Under the pieces are notes generated by a model. It searched no databases. It saw only the letters and a program-made list of their open reading frames with translations, and had not been told where the DNA came from. The translations under genes were made by a program, and so were the position numbers. From the UHGV virus genome UHGV-0309045: 16,595 bases of DNA. The stretch is one strand, 5' to 3'. Below are positions 2,743-16,359 of this stretch, in pieces (within the stretch, counting starts at the first letter, position 1; the number at the start of each line of letters is the position of its first letter). Source of the stretch: a virus.

Positions 2743-3765
2743 TTACTCGAATTCTGGACGCATATCGTTAAGCGTCATCATGAATTTTTGGTGATATTCA
2801 TCACCGAGCTTTTCAGCCATGGTGTTAATTTCATTTTCAGCGCGCTTGAACATCGTTTTTGCATCTTCAGCAGATGGATCCAGGCTATTAAGTATCGCGA
2901 TGATATATTCTCGAGCTTCTTCTCGTTCTGAATCTGAAATTGGCGACAGGTGTTGACGCTCATCGTCAACTACGGAATATTCACCAGTGATAACAGCTGC
3001 GTTATCTTGGCTAAGTCCAGCTTCAGCGCGCTCATCCATAACAACAGCCTTCTGCATTTCAATAGAAACAGGAAGATATTTGAACAGTCGGCGAATTACT
3101 GTTTTTTTAGCCATCTCATCGAAGTGATCAACCCATGGGCCACTGCTACCGGCTTTGCTCAGTGCACGAACTTTCTCAACGTCTGCCCGGCTCATAACTT
3201 CAAATTGGACTCCGCCATCTTTCAGTCGTGCAACGGCGTAAACGTGCGTTAATTCTCCGCGGTCACCTGTTTCGCAAGGTAAATGCTCGAGCGTTTCTTC
3301 CAGGCCGTATGAGTAGCTGAATTTGTCGTTTGTATGTACGGTACGAGCCGAGATACTCAGGATCTGCCCAGAGCGGCGGGCAAGGTCAATCATTCCGCGA
3401 TAGCCGATAATCAGCTGTGCTTCTGTAGATACGGTTTCCCATCTTCCATTTACTTTCTGGCGTTTGTCGAACGGTATCAGGTAAGCGTGTCCAAGAGCTC
3501 CGCCTGGTTCAAGACCCAATTGGGCACATTGCATAATTGCCCCCAGGAAGCTGGCTTGGTCGCATGATGCAAGTTTTGGAACCTTTCTGATCTCTGTGGT
3601 TGCTATGCGCGCCAGACGGTCTGCTGTCATGTGCTTTGGAAGTGCCAAAGCCATCTGAGCTTTAATTTTTGGGTCTGCCAGAAGTCCGGCCAGAGTTGTT
3701 GGTTTCTCATTATGATGTGCAACTTGGTTACCGGTAGCCGCTGCCTTAAGTGCATTGATAGACAT
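2743..3765 (-). CDS. recT: RecT-family single-strand annealing recombinase
   Basis: Long collinear similarity to E. coli Rac RecT as recalled (RIATTEIRKVP, QCAQLGLEPG, LIIGYRGMIDLARRSGQI, HVYAVARLKDGGVQFEVM, KKTVIRRLFKYLPVSIEMQKAV). RBS AAGGAG 6 nt upstream of ATG 3765. Confidence 0.92.
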   Translation of the reverse strand: MSINALKAAATGNQVAHHNEKPTTLAGLLADPKIKAQMALALPKHMTADRLARIATTEIRKVPKLASCDQASFLGAIMQCAQLGLEPGGALGHAYLIPFDKRQKVNGRWETVSTEAQLIIGYRGMIDLARRSGQILSISARTVHTNDKFSYSYGLEETLEHLPCETGDRGELTHVYAVARLKDGGVQFEVMSRADVEKVRALSKAGSSGPWVDHFDEMAKKTVIRRLFKYLPVSIEMQKAVVMDERAEAGLSQDNAAVITGEYSVVDDERQHLSPISDSEREEAREYIIAILNSLDPSAEDAKTMFKRAENEINTMAEKLGDEYHQKFMMTLNDMRPEFE

Positions 3766-3774
3766 TTTTTCTCC

Positions 3775-4674
3775 TTACTTCATTCTGAAGACGCGTTGTG
3801 TCGTTGTTGTTTTGAATTTTTCGAATAACTCAGGGTGTACTGACTGGAATAGCTTCTGGTCGAATCTGTTGCTGATCTGAGATTTCCATGTGCAGAGCGG
3901 CTTTCCGTCCAGGGTCAGGACTGAGTGCTCTTGCATGTACATCTTCAGCTTCTCTTCTGATATAGCTATTTCTTCTTCCAGTGATTTTCTGCGTGATTTC
4001 ATGTCTCGTAGATCGTTGAATAGTGCGAGTGCCTTTCCGTCAGCCTCGATACTTGTCCCGGCATCTTTCTCAAACATCAGCGATACATCGCTTACGCTGG
4101 TAGCTTCCGGCGGGTTAAGATTTTTCACTCGGTCCCAGAAAGCGATTTCTTTTTCTAAGATCGCCTGGATAGTTTCTTCATCACGCTCAACCCGATAGAT
4201 TCGGAAGTCGTCGCCACCGATAAGCACACCGAAAACGCATACCTGTTTGTTTGTAACCATCAACCCGTGCATGGCCTGGGCCGTGTAATGCACAGGAATT
4301 GCATCTGTCTGGATTTCTCCCCATTCTTTGGCCTTGAACGGACTAACTGTTTTGATCTCAATGTTCTCGCCTGACGCTGCTTCTGCATCGATCTCAGCTG
4401 CAATAAAATCGTAATCACGGTGGATATAGCGGTTTCCGCGATGAACGATTTCCATCCCTGTTTCCTCAGAAAGCAGGTCTATTACGTATGGCTCCATACG
4501 CTGGCCACGCGTGAAAACTTTCTGCTTGCTTTGGTCTACTGGTTTGACACGTGGCTGGACCTTATCCAGATAAACCTCAAGCGGGGTGCGCCATGGGCTA
4601 ATTCCAAGAATCCCTGCAACATCGCTTCCTCCGATGTATTTTGTTCTATCCATGATTCCAGCGTTCCGCATCAT
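3775..4674 (-). CDS. RecE/YqaJ-family 5'-3' exonuclease (short form, partner of RecT)
   Basis: YqaJ-type nuclease motif YIGGSDVAGILGISPWRTPLEVY. Sits immediately upstream of recT, and its stop TAA lies inside the recT RBS. Start ATG 4674 overlaps the upstream ORF stop (ATGA). Confidence 0.8.
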   Translation of the reverse strand: MMRNAGIMDRTKYIGGSDVAGILGISPWRTPLEVYLDKVQPRVKPVDQSKQKVFTRGQRMEPYVIDLLSEETGMEIVHRGNRYIHRDYDFIAAEIDAEAASGENIEIKTVSPFKAKEWGEIQTDAIPVHYTAQAMHGLMVTNKQVCVFGVLIGGDDFRIYRVERDEETIQAILEKEIAFWDRVKNLNPPEATSVSDVSLMFEKDAGTSIEADGKALALFNDLRDMKSRRKSLEEEIAISEEKLKMYMQEHSVLTLDGKPLCTWKSQISNRFDQKLFQSVHPELFEKFKTTTTQRVFRMK

Positions 4675-5144: not shown

Positions 5145-5159
5145 TTACCGTTGAGGTAA
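5145..5159. promoter_or_regulatory. Operator site TTACC GTTGA GGTAA (promoter-proximal site of the pL-like promoter)
   Basis: Perfect match to the TTACC-N5-GGTAA palindrome. An extra TTACC half-site at 5132-5136 forms a 7-bp inverted repeat TTACCTC/GAGGTAA around it. Confidence 0.6.
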
Positions 5160-5187
5160 TAATTATGCTTATTTGGTTTGGTGTCAA
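5159..5187 (-). promoter_or_regulatory. pL-like leftward early promoter
   Basis: On the minus strand: -35 TTGACA (plus coordinates 5187-5182), 17-bp spacer, -10 AATTAT (5164-5159) whose last base is the first base of the operator at 5159-5145. Confidence 0.5.
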
Positions 5188-5206
5188 TAGATATGAGTTA
5201 AAAAAA

Positions 5207-5221
5207 TTACCCGTAAGGTAA
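5207..5221. promoter_or_regulatory. Operator site TTACC CGTAA GGTAA (promoter-distal site of the pL-like promoter)
   Basis: Perfect palindrome match, 19 bp from the -35 hexamer and 62 bp centre-to-centre from the site at 5145-5159. Confidence 0.6.
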
Positions 5222-5278: not shown

Positions 5279-5863
5279 TTATTGTTTGCTTTTTTCGTTC
5301 TGGTTGATGACAAATTCAATGTAACTTTCGATCTTTGCTTTCTCGGTTTCGGGTAACAATGCGTAGCGCGAGCGGTCATAGTTGATAGTCGCAGGGTCGT
5401 GCGGGTGAATCAGTAGTTCATATCCGTGACGCCCGAATGCGGATGCAACATTCTCCAGGGTGGAAATGGAAACGCTGACCTCATTGTTTAACAGGCGACT
5501 GATTGTCACCTGGGCGACGCCGGATGCGCGGTGAAGTTTTCCCTGCGTTGAAAGGTCGCGGCTTTCGCTCATCCAGCGTTCCAGGTTGTGAGCCGCCAGC
5601 TGACCAATGTCGCTTGGGCCGACAGGCTGAAAACCTTCCTGAGAAAGCGAGCGATCGATATCAAGCCAGTTACGGGGTTTATTGGCGGCAGCTTCAATTT
5701 TTCGCGCAACCTGGTCGCCGATAACCTTCTTGCCAAGAGCCCAGCGGTTTACCAGATTTGCCTGAGTTCCAAGTTTTTCTGCCATCCGCGTCTGAACACC
5801 ATTGAATTCACGGTCGATCAAGTCGTTGAGATTTTGCCTGCGGACGTCCTGGATACTTTTCAT
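5279..5863 (-). CDS. CI-like prophage repressor with two HTH segments and no recognisable LexA/S24 peptidase domain
   Basis: Divergent from the Cro-like gene across an operator-rich intergenic region. HTH-like segments TRMAEKLGTQANLVNRW and ASGVAQVTISRLL. No Ala-Gly/Ser-Lys autocleavage motifs seen by eye. Confidence 0.75.
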   Translation of the reverse strand: MKSIQDVRRQNLNDLIDREFNGVQTRMAEKLGTQANLVNRWALGKKVIGDQVARKIEAAANKPRNWLDIDRSLSQEGFQPVGPSDIGQLAAHNLERWMSESRDLSTQGKLHRASGVAQVTISRLLNNEVSVSISTLENVASAFGRHGYELLIHPHDPATINYDRSRYALLPETEKAKIESYIEFVINQNEKSKQ

Positions 5864-5918: not shown

Positions 5919-5981
5919 TTACCCAACAGGTAAATGCACCTCATAGGTAACTATCCTTGATTTTTGTTACCTTATGGGTGA
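5919..5981. promoter_or_regulatory. OR-like operator cluster with divergent promoter region (three sites)
   Basis: 5919-5933 TTACCCAACAGGTAA (perfect), 5936-5950 gcACCTCATAGGTAA, 5967-5981 TTACCTTATGGGTgA. Candidate rightward promoter: -35 TTGTTA 5964-5969 and -10 TATTAT 5987-5992, with the third site covering the spacer. Confidence 0.65.
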
Positions 5982-6017: not shown

Positions 6018-6248
6018 ATGAGCGATAACGGACATTTCGATTTCAAAAAGCACTGGCTTGCACTTACTCCGGATGAGCGTGAAGCCTTCGCACAGGAAGC
6101 CGGAACGACGAGTCACTATATCCAGACTCACTTAACAGGTAAGCGCAAAATGCCAGGTAAGGTATTGATGAATGGGCTTTTTAAAGCCTGTAAAACAAGA
6201 CAATGGCTGCGCTCAAAAGCAGAACTGGCATACTTCTTCTACTCATGA
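6018..6248 (+). CDS. Cro-like small HTH regulator
   Basis: 76 aa, first rightward gene after the operator cluster, with an HTH-like segment REAFAQEAGTTSHYIQTHLTG. Followed by a terminator. Confidence 0.6.
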   Translation: MSDNGHFDFKKHWLALTPDEREAFAQEAGTTSHYIQTHLTGKRKMPGKVLMNGLFKACKTRQWLRSKAELAYFFYS

Positions 6249-8225: not shown

Positions 8226-8302
8226 TTACCTTCTGGGTAACAAAGTATTCTAAACTCTATTGATTTCGTGTCTTATGTGGTTTTTAATTACCTCAGGGGT
8301 AA
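8226..8302 (+). promoter_or_regulatory. Operator-promoter-operator module driving the accessory operon
   Basis: Operators TTACCTTCTGGGTAA (8226-8240) and TTACCTCAGGGGTAA (8288-8302), both perfect palindrome matches. Between them -35 TTGATT 8260-8265, 17-bp spacer, -10 TTTAAT 8283-8288. The downstream operator overlaps the RBS of the 8306 gene. Confidence 0.6.
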
Positions 8303-11130: not shown

Positions 11131-11171
11131 GAGTAGATTATGCATGATGAATTTGATGGGTTTTGAATACT

Positions 11172-11198
11172 GCCGCCAACTATGGCGGCTTTATTTTG
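11172..11198 (+). terminator. Rho-independent terminator ending the accessory operon
   Basis: Hairpin GCCGCC-AACTAT-GGCGGC followed by TTTATTTTG. Confidence 0.75.
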
Positions 11199-11201
11199 CA
11201 T

Positions 11202-11233
11202 GGTACTATTACCACAACGGTAACTATTACCAC
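11202..11233 (+). repeat. Tandem direct repeat GGTA(A)CTATTACCAC x2 with 18-bp period, just upstream of the terminase small subunit
   Basis: ACTATTACCAC at 11205-11215 and 11223-11233. Each unit carries the operator half-sites in everted order (GGTAA-N3-TTACC). No sigma70 consensus promoter is evident, so this may be an activator-dependent late promoter. Confidence 0.5.
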
Positions 11234-11240
11234 GGTGGTT

Positions 11241-11837
11241 ATGATGCCTGCTGAACCTAAAACCTATAAACGCAAATCAACGCAATTTAAGCCACTAACA
11301 GCAATGCAGGAGGCTTATTGCCAGTCATACATCAAAACGCCTGAAAACCAGACTCAGGCAGCGATTAACGCAGGATTCTCCCCAAATACAGCGGCAGTTA
11401 AAGCCAGTGTCATGATGCGCGATGAACGCATTCAAAAACGGATTGCCGAGCTGATGGAGGAGCGCAACAAACGAATGCGCGTCAGTGCTGATTACGTTCT
11501 CATGCGCCTGGTGGAGATCGACCAGATGGACGTGATCGACATCCTCAACGACGATGGGAGCCTTAAGCCAATCCGCGAGTGGCCGAAAATCTGGCGCACT
11601 ACGCTTAGCGGCTTTGATCTGTCATCGACCATCATGAACATGAACGAGGATTCGATAGAGACAATCCTCAAAAAAATTAAATGGCCTGACAAGGTGAAGA
11701 ACCTCGAGCTTATCGGTAAGCACGTCGACGTCAACGCGTTCAAAGAGCGCCTGGATGTTAATGTGAATGTGACAATTGCTGATCGCATAGCGGCAGCCAG
11801 GAAGCGACTCAAAGAACGTCAGGATGGTAATCAGTGA
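11241..11837 (+). CDS. Terminase small subunit (Terminase_2-like)
   Basis: LTAMQEAYCQSYIKTPENQTQAAINAGFSPNTAAVKASVMM matches the small-terminase HTH signature. Start placed at ATG 11241 because the ORF-track start at 11163 spans the upstream terminator. Confidence 0.8.
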   Translation: MMPAEPKTYKRKSTQFKPLTAMQEAYCQSYIKTPENQTQAAINAGFSPNTAAVKASVMMRDERIQKRIAELMEERNKRMRVSADYVLMRLVEIDQMDVIDILNDDGSLKPIREWPKIWRTTLSGFDLSSTIMNMNEDSIETILKKIKWPDKVKNLELIGKHVDVNAFKERLDVNVNVTIADRIAAARKRLKERQDGNQ

Positions 11838-13309
11838 CAGATGCAGTGTTATCTCCTGAAGAGCAGTTAATCGAAGATATTGCAGGGTTCACTCACGATC
11901 CGCTTGGCTATGCCCTCTATGCGTTCCCGTGGGGGGAAGAGGGGACTGAACTGGCACATGCCACCGGCCCACGTCAGTGGCAGGCTGATGCGTTCCGAGA
12001 GATACGTGATCACCTGCAGAATCCAGAGACGCGCTATCAGCCGCTTATGCTGGCACGCGCTTCTGGTCACGGTATTGGTAAATCCGCATTCATCTCAATG
12101 CTGATCAACTGGGGCATGTCCACTTGCGAGGATTGTAAGGTCGTGGTGACCGCCAACACCGACAACCAGCTACGAACGAAGACTTGGCCGGAAATTATCA
12201 AGTGGTCGAACCTTGCTATCACGAAAGACTGGTTTACCTGTACCGCTACCGCGATGTACAGCAATGACCCTGGGCACGACAAGCGGTGGCGAGCTGACGC
12301 AATCCCCTGGTCTGAGCACAACACTGAGGCATTCGCCGGATTACACAATGAGCGCAAACGCATCATCGTGGTATTCGATGAAGCGTCGAACATTGCGGAT
12401 CTGGTGTGGGAAGTTGCCGAGGGTGCGCTAACGGACGAAGACACTGAGATTATCTGGGTGGCGTTCGGAAACCCGACGCGTAATACCGGACGTTTCCGTG
12501 AATGTTTCCGCAAGTATAAACACCGCTGGAAAACTGCGCAGATTGACAGTCGGACGGTGGAAGGTACCAACAAACAGCAGTTGCAGAAATGGGTTGATGA
12601 CTACGGGGAAGACAGCGACTTCGTTAAAATCCGTGTGCGTGGCATATTCCCTGATGCATCTGAATTGCAGTTTATCCCTACCGGTCTTACTGACGAGGCA
12701 ATAAAACGGGTGGTAACCGCTGCGCAGGTTGCACATGCTCCGGTGATAATCGGCGTTGACCCGGCATACTCCGGCGTTGATGACGCTGTGATATACCTGC
12801 GGCAGGGGCTACACAGTAAGGTGCTGTGGACTGGAAACAAGACTACCGACGATCTGATTATGGCGAAGCGTATCGCTGACTTTGAAGACCAGTATCAGGC
12901 TGACGCGGTGTTCATCGACTTTGGTTACGGAACCGGTTTGAAGTCAATCGGTGACGGCTGGGGTCGTACATGGCAACTTGTTCCGTTCGGTGGCGCGTCT
13001 ACTGACCCGCAGATGCTCAACAAGCGTGGGGAGATGTTCAACTCATGCAAGACATGGCTGAGGCTTGGCGGCATGCTGGATGACCATGAAACAGCGGACG
13101 ACCTGTCGGCGGCAGAGTACAAAGTTCGAGTGGACGGTAAAATCGTTATCGAACCGAAGGAAGATATCAAAGAGCGGCTTGGGCGTTCTCCTGGTAAAGG
13201 CGATGCGCTACTGCTGACGTTTGCGTTCCCTGTGTCGAAGCGTCTGCGAATTCCCGGTCAGCAGAACCAGCAAGGCAAGGCCATCACAGATTACGATCCC
13301 TATGCTTAA
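11834..13309 (+). CDS. Terminase large subunit (ATPase plus nuclease)
   Basis: Walker A ARASGHGIGKS, Walker B-like IIVVFDEAS, nuclease-domain block VIIGVDPAYSGVDDAVI. GTG 11834 overlaps the small-subunit stop (GTGA). Confidence 0.9.
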   Translation: MTDAVLSPEEQLIEDIAGFTHDPLGYALYAFPWGEEGTELAHATGPRQWQADAFREIRDHLQNPETRYQPLMLARASGHGIGKSAFISMLINWGMSTCEDCKVVVTANTDNQLRTKTWPEIIKWSNLAITKDWFTCTATAMYSNDPGHDKRWRADAIPWSEHNTEAFAGLHNERKRIIVVFDEASNIADLVWEVAEGALTDEDTEIIWVAFGNPTRNTGRFRECFRKYKHRWKTAQIDSRTVEGTNKQQLQKWVDDYGEDSDFVKIRVRGIFPDASELQFIPTGLTDEAIKRVVTAAQVAHAPVIIGVDPAYSGVDDAVIYLRQGLHSKVLWTGNKTTDDLIMAKRIADFEDQYQADAVFIDFGYGTGLKSIGDGWGRTWQLVPFGGASTDPQMLNKRGEMFNSCKTWLRLGGMLDDHETADDLSAAEYKVRVDGKIVIEPKEDIKERLGRSPGKGDALLLTFAFPVSKRLRIPGQQNQQGKAITDYDPYA

Positions 13310-13350
13310 TCCGCTGGTGGGGATAATGTCGTTGATATCCTCTGGTGAGG

Positions 13351-13379
13351 ATAAAACAAAGCCAGCTCATCGGCTGGCT
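13351..13379 (-). terminator. Terminator hairpin between the convergent terminase large subunit and 118-aa genes (mainly minus-strand)
   Basis: Stem AGCCAGC-TCATCG-GCTGGCT (13360-13379). Minus strand has TTGTTTTAT after the stem; plus strand has only GTTTG. Confidence 0.5.
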
Positions 13380-13383
13380 GTTT

Positions 13384-13395
13384 GTGACATGTCAC
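13384..13395. repeat. Second copy of the palindrome GTGACATGTCAC
   Basis: Identical 14-mer TGTGACATGTCACG at 13383-13396, lying between the stop of the 118-aa gene at 13400 and the terminator hairpin. Confidence 0.85.
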
Positions 13396-13399
13396 GGTG

Positions 13400-13756
13400 T
13401 TATTGCTCGCTTAACTTCTGCTTCAGCAAGTAACCTTCGAGCATCCAGATTTTGTTTACAGCATTCTGCCGGGCAATCTTCCGACCAATTTCTGCATCAA
13501 AATTTTCCGGACTTGCACAGGCACTCTCTCCGGTGACGGTGAAGCCATTCTTCAGTACCAATACGCAGAAAGTCAGGAGGTCTGTAGATTTATGCGCTGT
13601 CCATGAATCGCCAACGCCCATATTGGCAGCACGAATGCCGTCATAAGCAGTAAAGAAATGCTCTTCAAGAATGATGCTTTCGATATATTGAGGCGTAACT
13701 CGCGGAGCGGTTTTGCCTTTCTCAACGATTTCTTTTTCGATTTGCTGGTCGTTCAT
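13400..13756 (-). CDS. Hypothetical protein (118 aa), reverse-oriented cargo gene inside the late region
   Basis: ATG 13756-13754 with AAGGTGAG RBS. Opposite strand to the flanking terminase and portal genes. No family recognised. Confidence 0.7.
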   Translation of the reverse strand: MNDQQIEKEIVEKGKTAPRVTPQYIESIILEEHFFTAYDGIRAANMGVGDSWTAHKSTDLLTFCVLVLKNGFTVTGESACASPENFDAEIGRKIARQNAVNKIWMLEGYLLKQKLSEQ

Positions 13757-13767
13757 AATCTCACCTT

Positions 13768-13791
13768 AAAAAAATGCCCGGCGAACCGGGC
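13768..13791 (-). terminator. Rho-independent terminator immediately upstream of the 118-aa gene RBS
   Basis: On the minus strand: GCCCGG-TTCG-CCGGGC followed by ATTTTTTT (plus coordinates 13776-13791 stem, 13768-13774 A-tract). Confidence 0.65.
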
Positions 13792-13869
13792 GAACTGGAA
13801 GCAATGAGTTATGCCTTCCGTGGCTGTACGGGTTTACAGCATGAAGTCATCGCAATGGCGTCCTGCTGT

Positions 13870-13911
13870 AAAAAGGGCGGTGATAGTCCTTCAAGGGAAA
13901 CCATCACCGCC
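13870..13911 (-). terminator. Rho-independent terminator downstream of the tRNA
   Basis: 9-bp stem GGCGGTGAT/ATCACCGCC (13876-13884 and 13903-13911) with an 18-nt loop, followed on the minus strand by CTTTTTAC. Confidence 0.6.
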
Positions 13912-13954
13912 AAGCCCCTGGAACTTCTGGCATCACGGTCCTTAGGCGTGATTC

Positions 13955-14031
13955 TGGTGTGGCATGCAGGATTCTAACCTGCGACCAACCGCTTAGAAGG
14001 CGGTTGCTCTGTCCAACTGAGCTAATGCCAC
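13955..14031 (-). tRNA. tRNA-Arg (anticodon UCU), argU-like, with encoded CCA
   Basis: Minus-strand sequence GTGGCATTAGCTCAGTTGGACAGAGCAACCGCCTTCTAAGCGGTTGGTCGCAGGTTAGAATCCTGCATGCCACACCA folds by hand into a cloverleaf: 7-bp acceptor stem, 4-bp D stem, 5-bp anticodon stem with loop CTTCTAA, 5-bp T stem, discriminator A, CCA. Close to E. coli argU as recalled. T-loop reads TTAGAAT rather than TTCGAAT. Confidence 0.9.
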
Positions 14032-14353
14032 AACGCTGAGAGCACTTAGCCTGTTAAGGCGCCACACTTTGTCGCGGCTCCATAAATGCTCTCATCGTTG
14101 TACCCTCGTCTCTTCCGAGGCGTCACACCGAATCGCCGGGATGGTGAATCCCCGTGCGCGGAATAAAACCGCTCGACTTGCACATTCCGGCTACCTGGTT
14201 CGTTTGCCCGAGCAAGGTAGGGTGCCCCTTAAACGTATCCAGACCGCTATCGTCGCATGTGCCATACGCCGTACTGCTCAAAATAAAAGCTCACTCCACC
14301 TGTTCAATTTAACGACAAGCCAGTCAGGTTAGTAACCGGAATGAACTTTTTTG

Positions 14354-14390
14354 TTACCCGAAGGGTAATAATTCGCGCGTTAAATGTCAA
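14354..14390 (-). promoter_or_regulatory. Operator TTACC CGAAG GGTAA (14354-14368) with an adjacent minus-strand -35 TTGACA (14390-14385); candidate repressor-controlled leftward promoter for the tRNA unit
   Basis: Perfect palindrome match and a perfect -35 hexamer on the minus strand 16 bp away. No convincing -10, so direction and function are inferred. Confidence 0.4.
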
Positions 14391-14458
14391 CTGCCTACGA
14401 TAAATAAATCATATGTGGTTAAATTGGTAATAATTTAATTGCGTACGGAGTCATTGAT

Positions 14459-14665
14459 ATGTGCATGGGTAGCTCACCATCAGTGCCTGCAACACCAGAA
14501 GTTCAGGCAGCACCACAGGAGCAGGATTCCGCCGTTGTTGATGCCCGAGACGAAGAAACTCGTCGCCGTCGCGCTGCTGCTGGTCGTAGTTCTACGCTGC
14601 TTACCGGTTCTCAGGGCGACACATCAACCGCTAATACCAGCGGTAAAACGCTGCTTGGTCAGTAA
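14459..14665 (+). CDS. Small low-complexity ORF (68 aa) immediately upstream of the portal gene
   Basis: GGAG RBS 8 nt upstream of ATG 14459. Shares the 12-nt translation-initiation sequence CGGAGTCATTGA with the portal gene. Ala/Ser/Thr/Arg-rich; coding status uncertain. Confidence 0.45.
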   Translation: MCMGSSPSVPATPEVQAAPQEQDSAVVDARDEETRRRRAAAGRSSTLLTGSQGDTSTANTSGKTLLGQ

Positions 14666-14679
14666 CCGGAGTCATTGAA

Positions 14680-16359
14680 ATGGCGGAAACAACTAAAGAG
14701 CGATTGAACAAACAGTTCGCACAACTTGAAAGCGAGCGTCAGTCGTTCGAGCCGCACTGGCGCGAGTTGAGTGATTACATCAACCCGCGTGGTTCCCGCT
14801 TTCTGACTTCTGAGGTCAACCGTAACGATCGACGCAATACACGCATTATTGATTCGACCGGGACTATGGCGGCGCGCACTCTCGCCAGCGGCATGATGTC
14901 AGGCATCACAAGCCCCGCGCGTCCGTGGTTTCGCCTGGCTACGCCAGATCCTGAAATGATGGATTATGGCCCTGTTAAGTTGTGGCTTGAGGCGGTGCAG
15001 AACCGCATGAACGATATGTTCAATAAGTCGAATCTCTACCAGTCTCTTCCGCAGTTATACGGAAGCCTCGGCACATACAGCACTGGTGCAATGGCGGTGC
15101 TGGAGGATGACGAGGACATCATTCGCACAATGCCATTCCCGATAGGCAGTTACTACCTGGCTAACTCACCTCGTGGCAGTGTGGACACCTGTTTTCGCAA
15201 GTTCTCTATGACTGTTCGTCAGCTTGTTCAGGAGTTCGGGCTAAATAACGTCAGCGAATCCGTAAAAAGCATGTGGGAAAGCGGCACCTACGAGAAGTGG
15301 ATTGACGTGATGCATTCGGTTTACCCGAACATTGACCGCGATACATCGAAGCTGGATAGCAAGAACAAGCCATTCAAATCGGTTTATTACGAGGTTGGTG
15401 GCGATAACGACAAGTTGTTGCGTGAGTCCGGATTTGATGAGTTTCCAATTATGGCTCCGCGCTGGGAAGTTAATGGCGAAGATGTTTATGGATCATCATG
15501 CCCGGGTATGCTGGCGCTTGGACCTGTTAAGGCATTGCAGCTTCTCCAGAAGCGCAAGTCGCAGTTGATTGATAAAGCCACCAATCCGCCGATGGTTGCT
15601 CCGACTTCCCTCAAGAATCAGCGCGCCTCCCTTCTTCCTGGCGACATCACGTATATCGATCAGATTACTGGTCAGGATGGTTTCAGGCCTGCTTATCTGG
15701 TTAACCCCAGTACAGCAGATCTGGTAGCAGACATTCAGGACACTCGTCAAATCATTAACAGCGCCTACTTTGTCGATCTGTTCATGATGTTGCAGAACAT
15801 CAATACCCGCTCGATGCCTGTTGAAGCGGTGATCGAAATGAAAGAAGAAAAACTTCTGATGTTGGGGCCGGTTCTGGAGCGTCTGAACGACGAATGTCTT
15901 AACCCTCTCATTGACCGCGCTTTCTCGATGATGGTGCGTAAAAACATGCTGCCGCCACCGCCTGACGCGATGGAAGGTATGCCCCTGAAGGTCGAATACA
16001 TTTCCGTCATGGCTCAGGCGCAGAAGTCTATCGGCCTGTCCAGTCTGGCGTCCACGGTTAACTTCATTGGTCAACTTGCGCAAGCGAAACCAGAAGCTCT
16101 CGACAAACTCAACGTTGATCAGGCGATCGATGCATTCGCTGATATGTCCGGAGTGTCTCCAACCGTCATTGTTCCGCAGGAACAGGTTGAGCAGGCTCGC
16201 CAGCAACGGGCACAGCAGCAACAGCAGCAACAAATGATGGCGATGGGGATGGCGGCGGCACAGGGTGCCAAGACGCTAAGCGAAGCTAAAACTTCGGATC
16301 CGAGTGTTTTGTCAGCTATGGCGAATGCAGTTAGTGGTCAGGGTGGGCAATCACAATGA
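14680..16359 (+). CDS. Portal protein (T7 gp8-like head-to-tail connector family)
   Basis: 559 aa. Overall pattern and the Gln/Ala/Met-rich C-terminal tail (QQRAQQQQQQQMMAMGMAAAQGA) resemble T7 gp8 as recalled. GGAG RBS 8 nt upstream of ATG 14680. Confidence 0.88.
   Translation: MAETTKERLNKQFAQLESERQSFEPHWRELSDYINPRGSRFLTSEVNRNDRRNTRIIDSTGTMAARTLASGMMSGITSPARPWFRLATPDPEMMDYGPVKLWLEAVQNRMNDMFNKSNLYQSLPQLYGSLGTYSTGAMAVLEDDEDIIRTMPFPIGSYYLANSPRGSVDTCFRKFSMTVRQLVQEFGLNNVSESVKSMWESGTYEKWIDVMHSVYPNIDRDTSKLDSKNKPFKSVYYEVGGDNDKLLRESGFDEFPIMAPRWEVNGEDVYGSSCPGMLALGPVKALQLLQKRKSQLIDKATNPPMVAPTSLKNQRASLLPGDITYIDQITGQDGFRPAYLVNPSTADLVADIQDTRQIINSAYFVDLFMMLQNINTRSMPVEAVIEMKEEKLLMLGPVLERLNDECLNPLIDRAFSMMVRKNMLPPPPDAMEGMPLKVEYISVMAQAQKSIGLSSLASTVNFIGQLAQAKPEALDKLNVDQAIDAFADMSGVSPTVIVPQEQVEQARQQRAQQQQQQQMMAMGMAAAQGAKTLSEAKTSDPSVLSAMANAVSGQGGQSQ

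Follow-up and report, generated by a model that had tools for sequence, protein, structure and literature searches.

The 16,595-nucleotide (nt) stretch of virus DNA UHGV-0309045, which is referred to below as the window, carries between its terminase and portal genes a leftward-reading locus (13351-14390) whose leader holds a conserved structured RNA of ~250 nt (190-250 nt) that constitutes a new family. On sequence evidence, the locus as a whole is a conserved, repressor-controlled accessory transcription unit of the genus Uetakevirus that leads leftward out of the terminase-portal junction, and the architecture, regulation and gene identities of this unit can jointly be put forward with considerable confidence. 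Its tRNA gene, terminators, operator and Acb4-family gene are known kinds of feature; the leader RNA is the new item. An earlier note on this DNA, made by a model from the letters and their open reading frames (ORFs), had recognised the minus-strand organisation of 13351-14390, which is real, with the features that it listed lying where it placed them. It had also described some 320 nt upstream of the tRNA gene as free of a convincing ORF, which is correct in that 14032-14353 contains no conserved ORF, but the interval is occupied by the RNA. As to function, a cis-acting antiterminator resembling the put RNAs of phages HK022 and HK639 is ranked first because of parallels in position and context, although this assignment is tentative.

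The 240 nt adjoining the tRNA gene share ~80% identity with unrelated phages. The same element is found in P1, P7, D6, SJ46 and RCS47, between trnI and ban in the C1-controlled ban operon, in the lambdoid phages cdtI and mEp460 and in Stx2-converting phages, and in phages of Klebsiella and Enterobacter. An exact core 19-mer matched at least 120 viral contigs, and among the matches listed 128 full copies fall into 40 clusters at 93% identity. In species-representative genomes, a two-block pattern places the element in about a dozen genera of Enterobacterales, while four hits in distant metagenome-assembled genomes (MAGs), of Bryobacteraceae, Saprospiraceae, Verrucomicrobiota and Obscuribacterales, miss the other blocks and were discarded as chance pattern matches. 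Using megablast, the element was detected in 1,064 of 5,426 complete E. coli genomes (~20%), and none of the 30 records listed, out of 1162 E. coli records, has an annotated feature under the match. Over 14032-14353, Rfam 15 returned nothing but the tRNA, either at the gathering threshold or at E<=10 with relaxed filters. The core sequence gave no match in a literature sequence search, and literature searches found no description of the RNA, although an earlier description may exist elsewhere. A covariance model of the core, R1, has a single hit in the window (134.6 bits, E 1.9e-42), and neither second nor divergent copies were found in the other operator-controlled operons of the window or on the lambdoid pR side. 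Epsilon15 retains the 5' half of the element only (40.9 bits; L004 2619-2726, 2720-2819 region), together with a loss of the tRNA gene and of T1, the first terminator behind it.

Three individual copies can be added. The P1 copy (L005 2501-2669, corresponding to AF234173 70704-70872) starts 14 nt after the tRNA-Ile gene and ends ~100 nt before ban, and the exhaustively annotated P1 record has no feature over it. A perfect copy (164 bits; L155 1154-1314) lies on a 1.75-kb contig in a MAG labelled Bacillota; contamination with enterobacterial phage DNA is the most likely explanation, rather than an occurrence in Gram-positive bacteria. The element also lies beside an enterobacterial-type repressor module in a record labelled Stenotrophomonas phage BUCT708 (L011).

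A fold model was built on 44 non-redundant cores, and the best model comprises six helices, two of which form pseudoknots, a purely nested RNAalifold alternative being less well supported. In this model 97.9% of cells are paired, versus 27-45% when the partners are slid, compensatory double changes occur in 12 pairs, and the covariation score of 0.252 compares with 0.111 +/- 0.007 in shuffles, 0 of 500 of which reach 0.252. In the 5' hairpin, 23 sequences have G-C at pair 10-22 and 20 have A-U; the loop of this hairpin, GCACAU, pairs with a downstream AUGUGC, an interaction that is invariant and hence offers no covariation test. The helix closing the variable hairpin is C-G in 33 sequences and U-A in 11. 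A second pseudoknot is formed by a hairpin loop CACC and a downstream GGUG; at its pair 148-168, 39 sequences have C-G and five have A-U, the A-U form spanning three different hairpin sequences. The stem of the hairpin with the conserved GAAGAG loop covaries freely. Many G-U pairs would be A-C mismatches on the opposite strand, which places the RNA on the minus strand of the window. The lengths of the variable segments span all mod-3 classes (16, 17 and 11 sequences), indicating that no reading frame is conserved and ruling out a protein-coding reading of the element. Downstream of the core, a long 3' hairpin is present in ~40% of the cluster representatives. In the window its 3' arm extends into the first two tRNA nucleotides. 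The top of the hairpin is variable, and its stem shows compensatory variants (GAGCGCA/TGCGCTC in the BUCT708 record, AAGAGTT/AACTCTT in ST64B).

In the contexts examined, the element is always co-oriented with and upstream of operon genes, and what these contexts have in common is a repressor-controlled early promoter followed by the element at the head of the operon. The lambdoid order is CI (helix-turn-helix domain plus S24 peptidase), its terminator, operator-like palindromes with the early-left promoter pL, the element, which starts ~25-30 nt after the inferred pL start, two terminator-like hairpins and the early-left genes. The genes downstream of the element are mutually unrelated (ParB-like, YfdQ, Xis/Int, ban, acb4), which argues against a gene-specific riboswitch. 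That absence of a consistent downstream function, and the tRNA gene or ~140 nt that separate the core from T1, disfavour this candidate; the conserved pseudoknotted core is nonetheless compatible with ligand binding in a sensor role. A tRNA neighbour occurs only in the Uetakevirus and P1 lineages, and 31 of the 40 cluster representatives have none within 1.5 kb, so that a tRNA-linked function (T-box-like or in tRNA processing) was rejected as a general role.

No N gene was found in any element-bearing lambdoid context examined, and SfII, SfV and SfIV have been reported to lack N (PMC3851460). The closest functional parallel is provided by the put RNAs, which act in cis just downstream of pL, measure ~70 nt with two stem-loops, and suppress intrinsic as well as Rho-dependent terminators without a phage protein (PMC9378689). 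HK022 putL and putR and HK639 putL follow a repressor-controlled early promoter in N-less lambdoids and precede terminators and delayed-early genes; mEp460, cdtI, 1720a-02 and Stx2a_WGPS2 place the element in the same kind of location, and the RNA of the window likewise lies between a repressor-controlled promoter and terminators. Put RNAs are short (126 nt are annotated in HK639), whereas the leader RNA is 190-250 nt long with two pseudoknots, is present once per genome instead of in both early operons, and is also found outside lambdoids, in P1 and Uetakevirus. Homology to HK639 putL was rejected, as there is neither similarity in alignment nor a covariance-model hit in HK639. Compared with lambda, the element occupies the nutL/N slot, first after pL and before terminators, but it is accompanied by no N-like ORF, has no boxA/boxB hairpin architecture and is much larger than a nut site. 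The P1 ban operon (C1-controlled; dicF-like RNA, tRNAs, tciABC, trnI, ban) shares the RNA core and a repressor-controlled early mix of tRNAs, noncoding RNA and accessory genes, and differs from the window in that the element comes after the tRNA gene instead of before it, without the long 3' hairpin or a nearby terminator.

The leader slot itself appears to be exchangeable. CI of SfII and of ST64B is 96% and 84% identical, respectively, to that of mEp460, which indicates the same immunity module, yet in SfII (L159 ~3385-3450) and ST64B (L160 ~3317-3385, 3606-3672, 3850-3965) the element core is replaced by a shared sequence, GAACAGGCAGGACGCCCACGAAGTAGCCGCC...GGATGATTCG, situated in the same ~800-nt slot without an annotated gene. 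ST64B keeps the long 3' hairpin and both downstream terminators despite the different core. The shared replacement suggests interchangeable leader modules, and with the SfII/ST64B core there may be two classes of such leader RNAs. Nut/N and put specificities show comparable module swapping.

Transcription of the unit is assigned to a promoter read from the sequence, with a perfect -35 hexamer and an overlapping operator, both present as the earlier note had proposed. A generic promoter scan left the TTGACA/TACCCT site uncalled because the -10 element matches the consensus at only 3/6 positions. The TTGACA-17 nt-TACCYT geometry is nevertheless kept in 33 of 42 Uetakevirus-type loci despite unrelated spacers, and the equivalent promoter of epsilon15 reads TTGACA-17-TACCTT. 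The description of the operator as immunity-type also holds, since the site is one of eight copies of TTACC-N5-GGTAA in the window, where 0.32 are expected and 0 of 200 shuffles reach eight. One pair (5145 and 5207) lies downstream of the repressor gene (5279-5863) and a second (5919 and 5967) upstream of it, facing a Cro-like gene (6018-6248); a third pair is found at 8226/8288 and single operators at 11209 and 14354. The start-to-start spacings of the pairs are 62, 48 and 62 nt (sites 5145-5221, 5919-5981 and 8226-8302). In the epsilon15 record, the motif is curated at the equivalents of two window positions under the name 'repressor'. As a copy of a repeated palindrome that lies over promoter elements and is paired at the left and right operators (OL and OR), the 14354 site has the sequence properties of a repressor operator and is assigned on these to the phage-repressor regulon that includes OL and OR. 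Overexpression of the repressor of ZX5/phiV10, which is identical, shuts down lytic transcription (PMC9782041). Because the operator covers the -10 element and the start, the unit is predicted to be silent in the prophage and to fire on infection or induction, that is, early in lytic growth, which argues against a role in lysogenic conversion. Scattered as they are before early, middle and packaging genes, the sites of the window are closer in arrangement to P1, with its distributed C1 operators, than to lambda with its two operators.

The terS ORF called here and in phiV10 (224 aa) contains the operator at 11209-11223, 46 nt from its start; in epsilon15 the operator precedes a shorter terS (198 aa), and the true terS start in the E. 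coli phages probably lies ~26 codons downstream of the annotated one. The integration host factor site placed by the epsilon15 curators overlaps the operator, and their 'RNaseIII' site covers the leader just upstream of the element remnant.

Two consecutive minus-strand terminators and a third hairpin had been noted from the letters (13911-13870 and 13791-13768 for the first two), and a terminator scan agrees. T1, T2 and T3 each combine a G+C-rich hairpin with a U-tract, as intrinsic terminators do, with Delta G values of -22.8, -12.9 and -11.6 kcal/mol, and the region holds four minus-strand terminator-like sites versus 1.4 +/- 1.1 in shuffles. T3 is annotated in phiV10 as the rho-independent terminator of terL, and T2 is annotated as rho-independent in epsilon15. 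T2 is kept before every cargo type, the cargo ORF starting 19-70 nt later, and a T1-like terminator ending CTTTTTACA is also found 3' of the element in cdtI/mEp460-type lambdoids and in ST64B.

The tRNA-Arg(UCU) gene proposed at 14031-13955 is called by ARAGORN, and the Rfam tRNA model RF00005 agrees (72.5 bits, E 1.7e-14, versus a gathering score of 29). A tRNA-Arg is annotated at this place in typing phage 9 and SPN9TCW, and the gene is present in 25 of 34 evaluable related loci. Its suggested role as a supplier of the rare AGA codon for the adjacent late genes is reversed by the codon counts. AGA makes up 5.65 per 1000 codons in the window genes, against an E. coli average of ~2 per 1000, yet all 25 counted AGA codons belong to genes that precede the packaging module, early and replication genes among them, and not one lies in terS, terL, gp3, portal or acb4. 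This distribution is in keeping with transcription of the tRNA from an early promoter and not with a late-gene helper. Outside the genus, the nearest relatives of the tRNA are other phage tRNAs (80-89% identity), many of them tRNA-Arg of Synechococcus cyanophages (85-89%) besides tRNAs of T4-like, Vibrio and Aeromonas phages, which suggests a phage tRNA lineage and not recent host capture. The window thus resembles other cases of phage-borne tRNA-Arg(UCU) in having a single AGA-reading tRNA in a temperate coliphage rich in AGA; it differs in that the tRNA was not copied recently from a coliphage or host and in that the AGA codons lie in early genes.

The 118-aa ORF (ORF118) with its ribosome-binding site (RBS) right behind the second terminator is present as described. 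No convincing candidate promoter between T1 and this cargo ORF was seen by eye or by promoter scan, and with no room for its own promoter the ORF must depend on upstream transcription; the earlier note's suggestion of read-through dependence is thereby supported. The sequence and structure searches that it had called for point to a sponge family and not to a toxin. ORF118 matches Pfam PF13876 over profile positions 1-82 of 82 (118.6 bits, cutoff 27; E 1.7e-34), a family carried by all listed homologues, and aligns to the SPO1 Acb4 structure (PDB 9e4w) (E 0.006 in a single-sequence comparison, 4e-5 with a profile). Its residues F72, F86 and I90 correspond to the SPO1 Acb4 contact residues F48, F62 and I66, and the ENFxxEIGR motif is kept. 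Among the other SPO1 contacts, N63 is replaced by D, V56 by C, Y57 by A81 and T70 by I94, K81 falls outside the aligned stretch, and ORF118 has an N-terminal extension of ~40 residues. From these matches, ORF118 is assigned to the Acb4 family of proteins directed against the cyclic oligonucleotide-based antiphage signalling system (CBASS) and is predicted to be a cyclic-dinucleotide sponge. According to the Acb4 paper, Acb4 belongs to PF13876, which has 1,331 homologues; 3'3'-cGAMP was bound by all eight homologues that were purified, and 3'3'-cAA in addition by the ones whose phages have Gram-negative hosts. The activity of SPO1 Acb4 appears early in infection. The family assignment therefore fits early lytic expression.

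The label of cargo is appropriate, since the slot is hypervariable among relatives. An ORF is called directly behind T2 in 33 of 34 evaluable loci; two calls look spurious, so that about three loci are effectively empty. The cargo types among the 34 loci are Acb4-type (11), Tad2-like (four) and two uncharacterised families (seven each), plus singletons. A Klebsiella relative carries PF11195 ('Thoeris anti-defense 2-like', E 4e-26), and epsilon15 gp50 carries PF13876. With Acb4-family and Tad2-like cargo in the same place, the slot behaves as an anti-defence position. One recurrent cargo family (L012, L036 and L101; 201-292 aa) combines a hydrophobic N-terminal half with a C-terminal half that is a long coiled coil, and another (126-201 aa, MKTVDMLAKYL...) is likewise without a Pfam match; given their slot neighbours, both are candidate new anti-defence or exclusion proteins. 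The slot resembles phage anti-defence islands and morons in that a single, hypervariable gene position flanked by terminators interrupts otherwise collinear genomes. It differs in being promoterless, placed behind a structured RNA, a tRNA and two terminators, and under the phage repressor, classical morons by contrast being expressed from the prophage.

These features can be combined into a single scheme, which as a whole, including the antiterminator mechanism, is possible but somewhat less than probable. A sigma-70 promoter under the repressor operator would fire on infection or induction and would yield a transcript with the ~250-nt leader RNA, tRNA-Arg(UCU), T1, T2, the acb4 cargo and T3, in this order. 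By analogy with put of HK022 and HK639, the nascent leader would fold and act in cis on the transcribing RNA polymerase, and the polymerase would then read through T1 and T2 into the cargo gene; in N-less lambdoids, the same RNA would carry polymerase through the terminators between pL and the early-left genes. As the tRNA 5' end abuts the long hairpin, RNase P cleavage at that end would separate the tRNA from the leader. The tRNA would serve the AGA-rich early and replication genes, borrowing the leader promoter and T1 as transcription signals, and the Acb4-family product is predicted to bind CBASS cyclic dinucleotides.

Several observations weigh against this scheme. The leader RNA is far larger than put and not homologous to it. 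In epsilon15 the 3' half of the element is gone along with the tRNA gene and T1, yet an intact Acb4-family gene remains behind T2, so that the RNA is not strictly required for the persistence of the cargo. About three Uetakevirus-type loci (L069, L086 and L105) have the element and terminators without a cargo ORF, as would suit an RNA that has its own function. P1 and several lambdoid groups have no strong terminator within ~1.2 kb downstream, and a scan found no general enrichment of sense-strand terminators downstream of the element, similar numbers being present antisense; the argument is therefore limited to the specific, conserved T1 and T2. Read-through of T3 as well would send transcription antisense into terL. 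With regard to the RNA model itself, the single-sequence folding energy is not significant (z = -1.13), and as most copies were gathered with an exact 19-mer (or 7+14-mer) seed, the invariance of the seed segment is uninformative.

The epsilon15 loss, the cargo-less loci and the terminator-less copies keep alive the main rival, a stand-alone early noncoding RNA that would act in trans, for instance by binding a host or defence protein. Although unlikely on balance, it deserves serious consideration. The RNA would be released by terminators, RNase P or RNase III, T1 and T2 would merely mark where the RNA/tRNA gene ends, and cargo expression would rely on leakage through them. The cargo-less loci have the promoter, element, T1 and T2, as such a gene would; the T1-like terminator travels with the element between Uetakevirus and cdtI/mEp460 lambdoids, the position 14 nt after a tRNA in P1 and directly before one in the window would allow precise excision, the fold equals protein- or ligand-binding RNAs in complexity, and the transcription unit is shared with anti-defence genes. 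Against an action in trans stand the position in the pL leader of N-less lambdoids, before terminators where antitermination is still needed, the many lambdoid and P1 copies without their own terminator, and the constant placement upstream of, and co-oriented with, an operon. A leader concerned with processing or stability is a good deal less plausible; through cleavage sites for RNase III or RNase P, or through a structure that protects the 5' end, it would mature the neighbouring tRNA or stabilise mRNA downstream, without effect on the polymerase. It would account for the ~19-bp 3' hairpin that abuts the tRNA 5' end, for the RNase III site that the epsilon15 curators annotated in the equivalent leader and for the place of the element behind tRNA-Ile in P1, but most cluster representatives (31 of 40) have no neighbouring tRNA, the P1 copies lack the long hairpin entirely, and a ~160-nt pseudoknotted core with near-invariant junctions exceeds the needs of a nuclease site.

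The model of the earlier note, in which a lysogenic-conversion or toxic cargo is expressed at a low read-through level, the tRNA serves late-gene AGA codons and the leader has no function, is very improbable, even though the operator and terminators are real, the cargo slot is as variable as a moron and no promoter lies between T2 and the ORF. An operator over the -10 element implies repression in the lysogen, the opposite of conversion genes; ORF118 is an Acb4-family sponge by prediction and not a toxin, the packaging and portal genes are without AGA codons, and the leader is strongly constrained in structure across at least 40 sequence clusters and three phage lineages. Least credible of all is a small plus-strand protein gene (the 87-aa ORF at 14069-14332, mEp460 gp37) or a site acting at the DNA level. 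A stop-free antisense frame does cross the core in many copies, and hypothetical ORFs have been placed there by automated annotation in mEp460 (gp37) and Tyrion (gp54). The variable segments nevertheless occur in every mod-3 length class, substitutions track base-pairing with G-U pairs on one strand only, and the phiV10 curators removed the ORF, their record having no p05.

Should the preferred antiterminator reading, or its trans-acting rival, be right, the leader RNA would define a new class of regulatory RNA in temperate enterobacterial phages, one that works independently of a protein; this is regarded as a reasonable possibility. In one version it would be a second, structurally unrelated family of processive antiterminator RNA, replacing N in many lambdoids and co-opted by P1 and Uetakevirus for tRNA and anti-defence cargo; in the other it would be an early-expressed RNA acting on a host factor or immune sensor. 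The alternative core of SfII and ST64B hints at several interchangeable RNA classes. To our knowledge, RNA-only antitermination is represented by essentially one example (HK022 put and its HK639 relative), and we know of no explanation so far for how N-less lambdoids of the SfII/SfV/ST64B/cdtI/mEp460 type pass the terminators before their early-left genes. A covariation-supported RNA now sits exactly where these phages need antitermination, and it is present in about one fifth of complete E. coli genomes and in P1. The locus also represents a compact wiring of immune-evasion cargo (Acb4-family and Tad2-like sponges) to the earliest repressor-gated transcription.

Table 1. Coordinates of the features of the locus and its neighbouring genes in the window.
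Feature	Position	Strand	Basis or remark
-35 hexamer TTGACA	14385-14390	minus	read from sequence
-10 element TACCCT	14362-14367	minus	17-nt spacer from -35; read from sequence
Repressor operator TTACCCGAAGGGTAA	14354-14368	both strands	overlaps -10 and predicted start ~14355
Conserved 5' flank of RNA (GGTGGAGTGAGC...GAGCAG), between promoter and core	14277-14302	minus	alignments; Uetakevirus-type copies only
Conserved RNA core (5' hairpin, multi-helix domain, pseudoknotted hairpin, GAAGAG-loop hairpin)	14099-14276	minus	covariance model R1
3' long hairpin of RNA (CAACGATGAGAGCAUU...AGUGCUCUCAGCGUUGU)	14030-14101	minus	inverted repeat I1, 19-nt arms, 89% complementary
tRNA-Arg(UCU), CCA encoded	13955-14031	minus	ARAGORN (anticodon TCT); Rfam RF00005
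Terminator T1 (GGCGGTGATGG...CTATCACCGCC + CTTTTTACAG)	13866-13911	minus	hairpin 13911-13876, 14 pairs, U-tail CTTTTTACAG
Imperfect 18-bp hairpin between T1 and T2 (inverted repeat I2)	13833-13872	minus	5' arm begins in T1 U-tract
Terminator T2 (GCCCGGTTCGCCGGGC + ATTTTTTTAA)	13766-13791	minus	hairpin 13791-13776; cargo RBS directly after
Cargo RBS AAGGTGAG	13760-13767	minus	directly after T2 U-tract; read from sequence
acb4-like gene, 118-aa PF13876 protein (ORF118)	13400-13756	minus	Pfam, PDB 9e4w match
Palindrome GTGACATGTCAC, 12 bp	13384-13395	both strands	read from sequence; lineage-limited, doubtful significance
Bidirectional terminator T3	13360-13379	both	common to terL (+) and cargo gene (-)
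TerS gene	11163-11837	rightward (+)	
TerL gene	11834-13309	rightward (+)	
Small gp3-like gene	14459-14665		right of island
Portal gene	14680-16359	rightward (+)	

The window is assigned on sequence identity to a phiV10/epsilon15-like temperate podovirus of the genus Uetakevirus with E. coli as host (Table 1). Positions 13200-14700 are 92-97% identical to phiV10, vB_EcoP_ZX5 and the O157 typing phages 9/10, and 14032-14290 is 100% identical to an E. coli chromosomal segment, presumably a prophage. The leftward-reading island sits between the rightward TerL gene and the gp3-like gene, and the same terminase-portal island is found in phiV10, ZX5, typing phages 9/10, SPN1S and Klebsiella/Enterobacter relatives, with hosts that include Salmonella. 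By this comparison the island is a fixed Uetakevirus feature and not a peculiarity of the window genome, so that its placement in the packaging/head module, which had been thought unusual, is the rule at this junction throughout the genus. The earlier note had regarded carriage of the locus by all relatives as conserved head-module genes as evidence against its interpretation; the relatives do all carry it, but not as head-module genes. The palindrome that it had given as 14 bp measures 12 bp and is missing from 20 of the 42 related loci (kept in 22); a single palindrome of that length per kb is within chance expectation.

The locus also calls for changes in existing annotation: the RNA is unannotated, genes listed as 'Gp49 family/hypothetical' encode Acb4-family sponges, and spurious ORFs have been placed over the RNA and the tRNA. 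Plus-strand ORFs are present in the window at 13774-13977 and 14069-14332, with database counterparts at L001 2672-2923, L006 2430-2798 and L010 1850-2011, and hypothetical proteins have been annotated over the tRNA/T1-T2 region (phiV10p04) as well as over the RNA element (mEp460 gp37, Tyrion gp54). The ORFs called across the element, and those across the tRNA and T1-T2, are very likely spurious.

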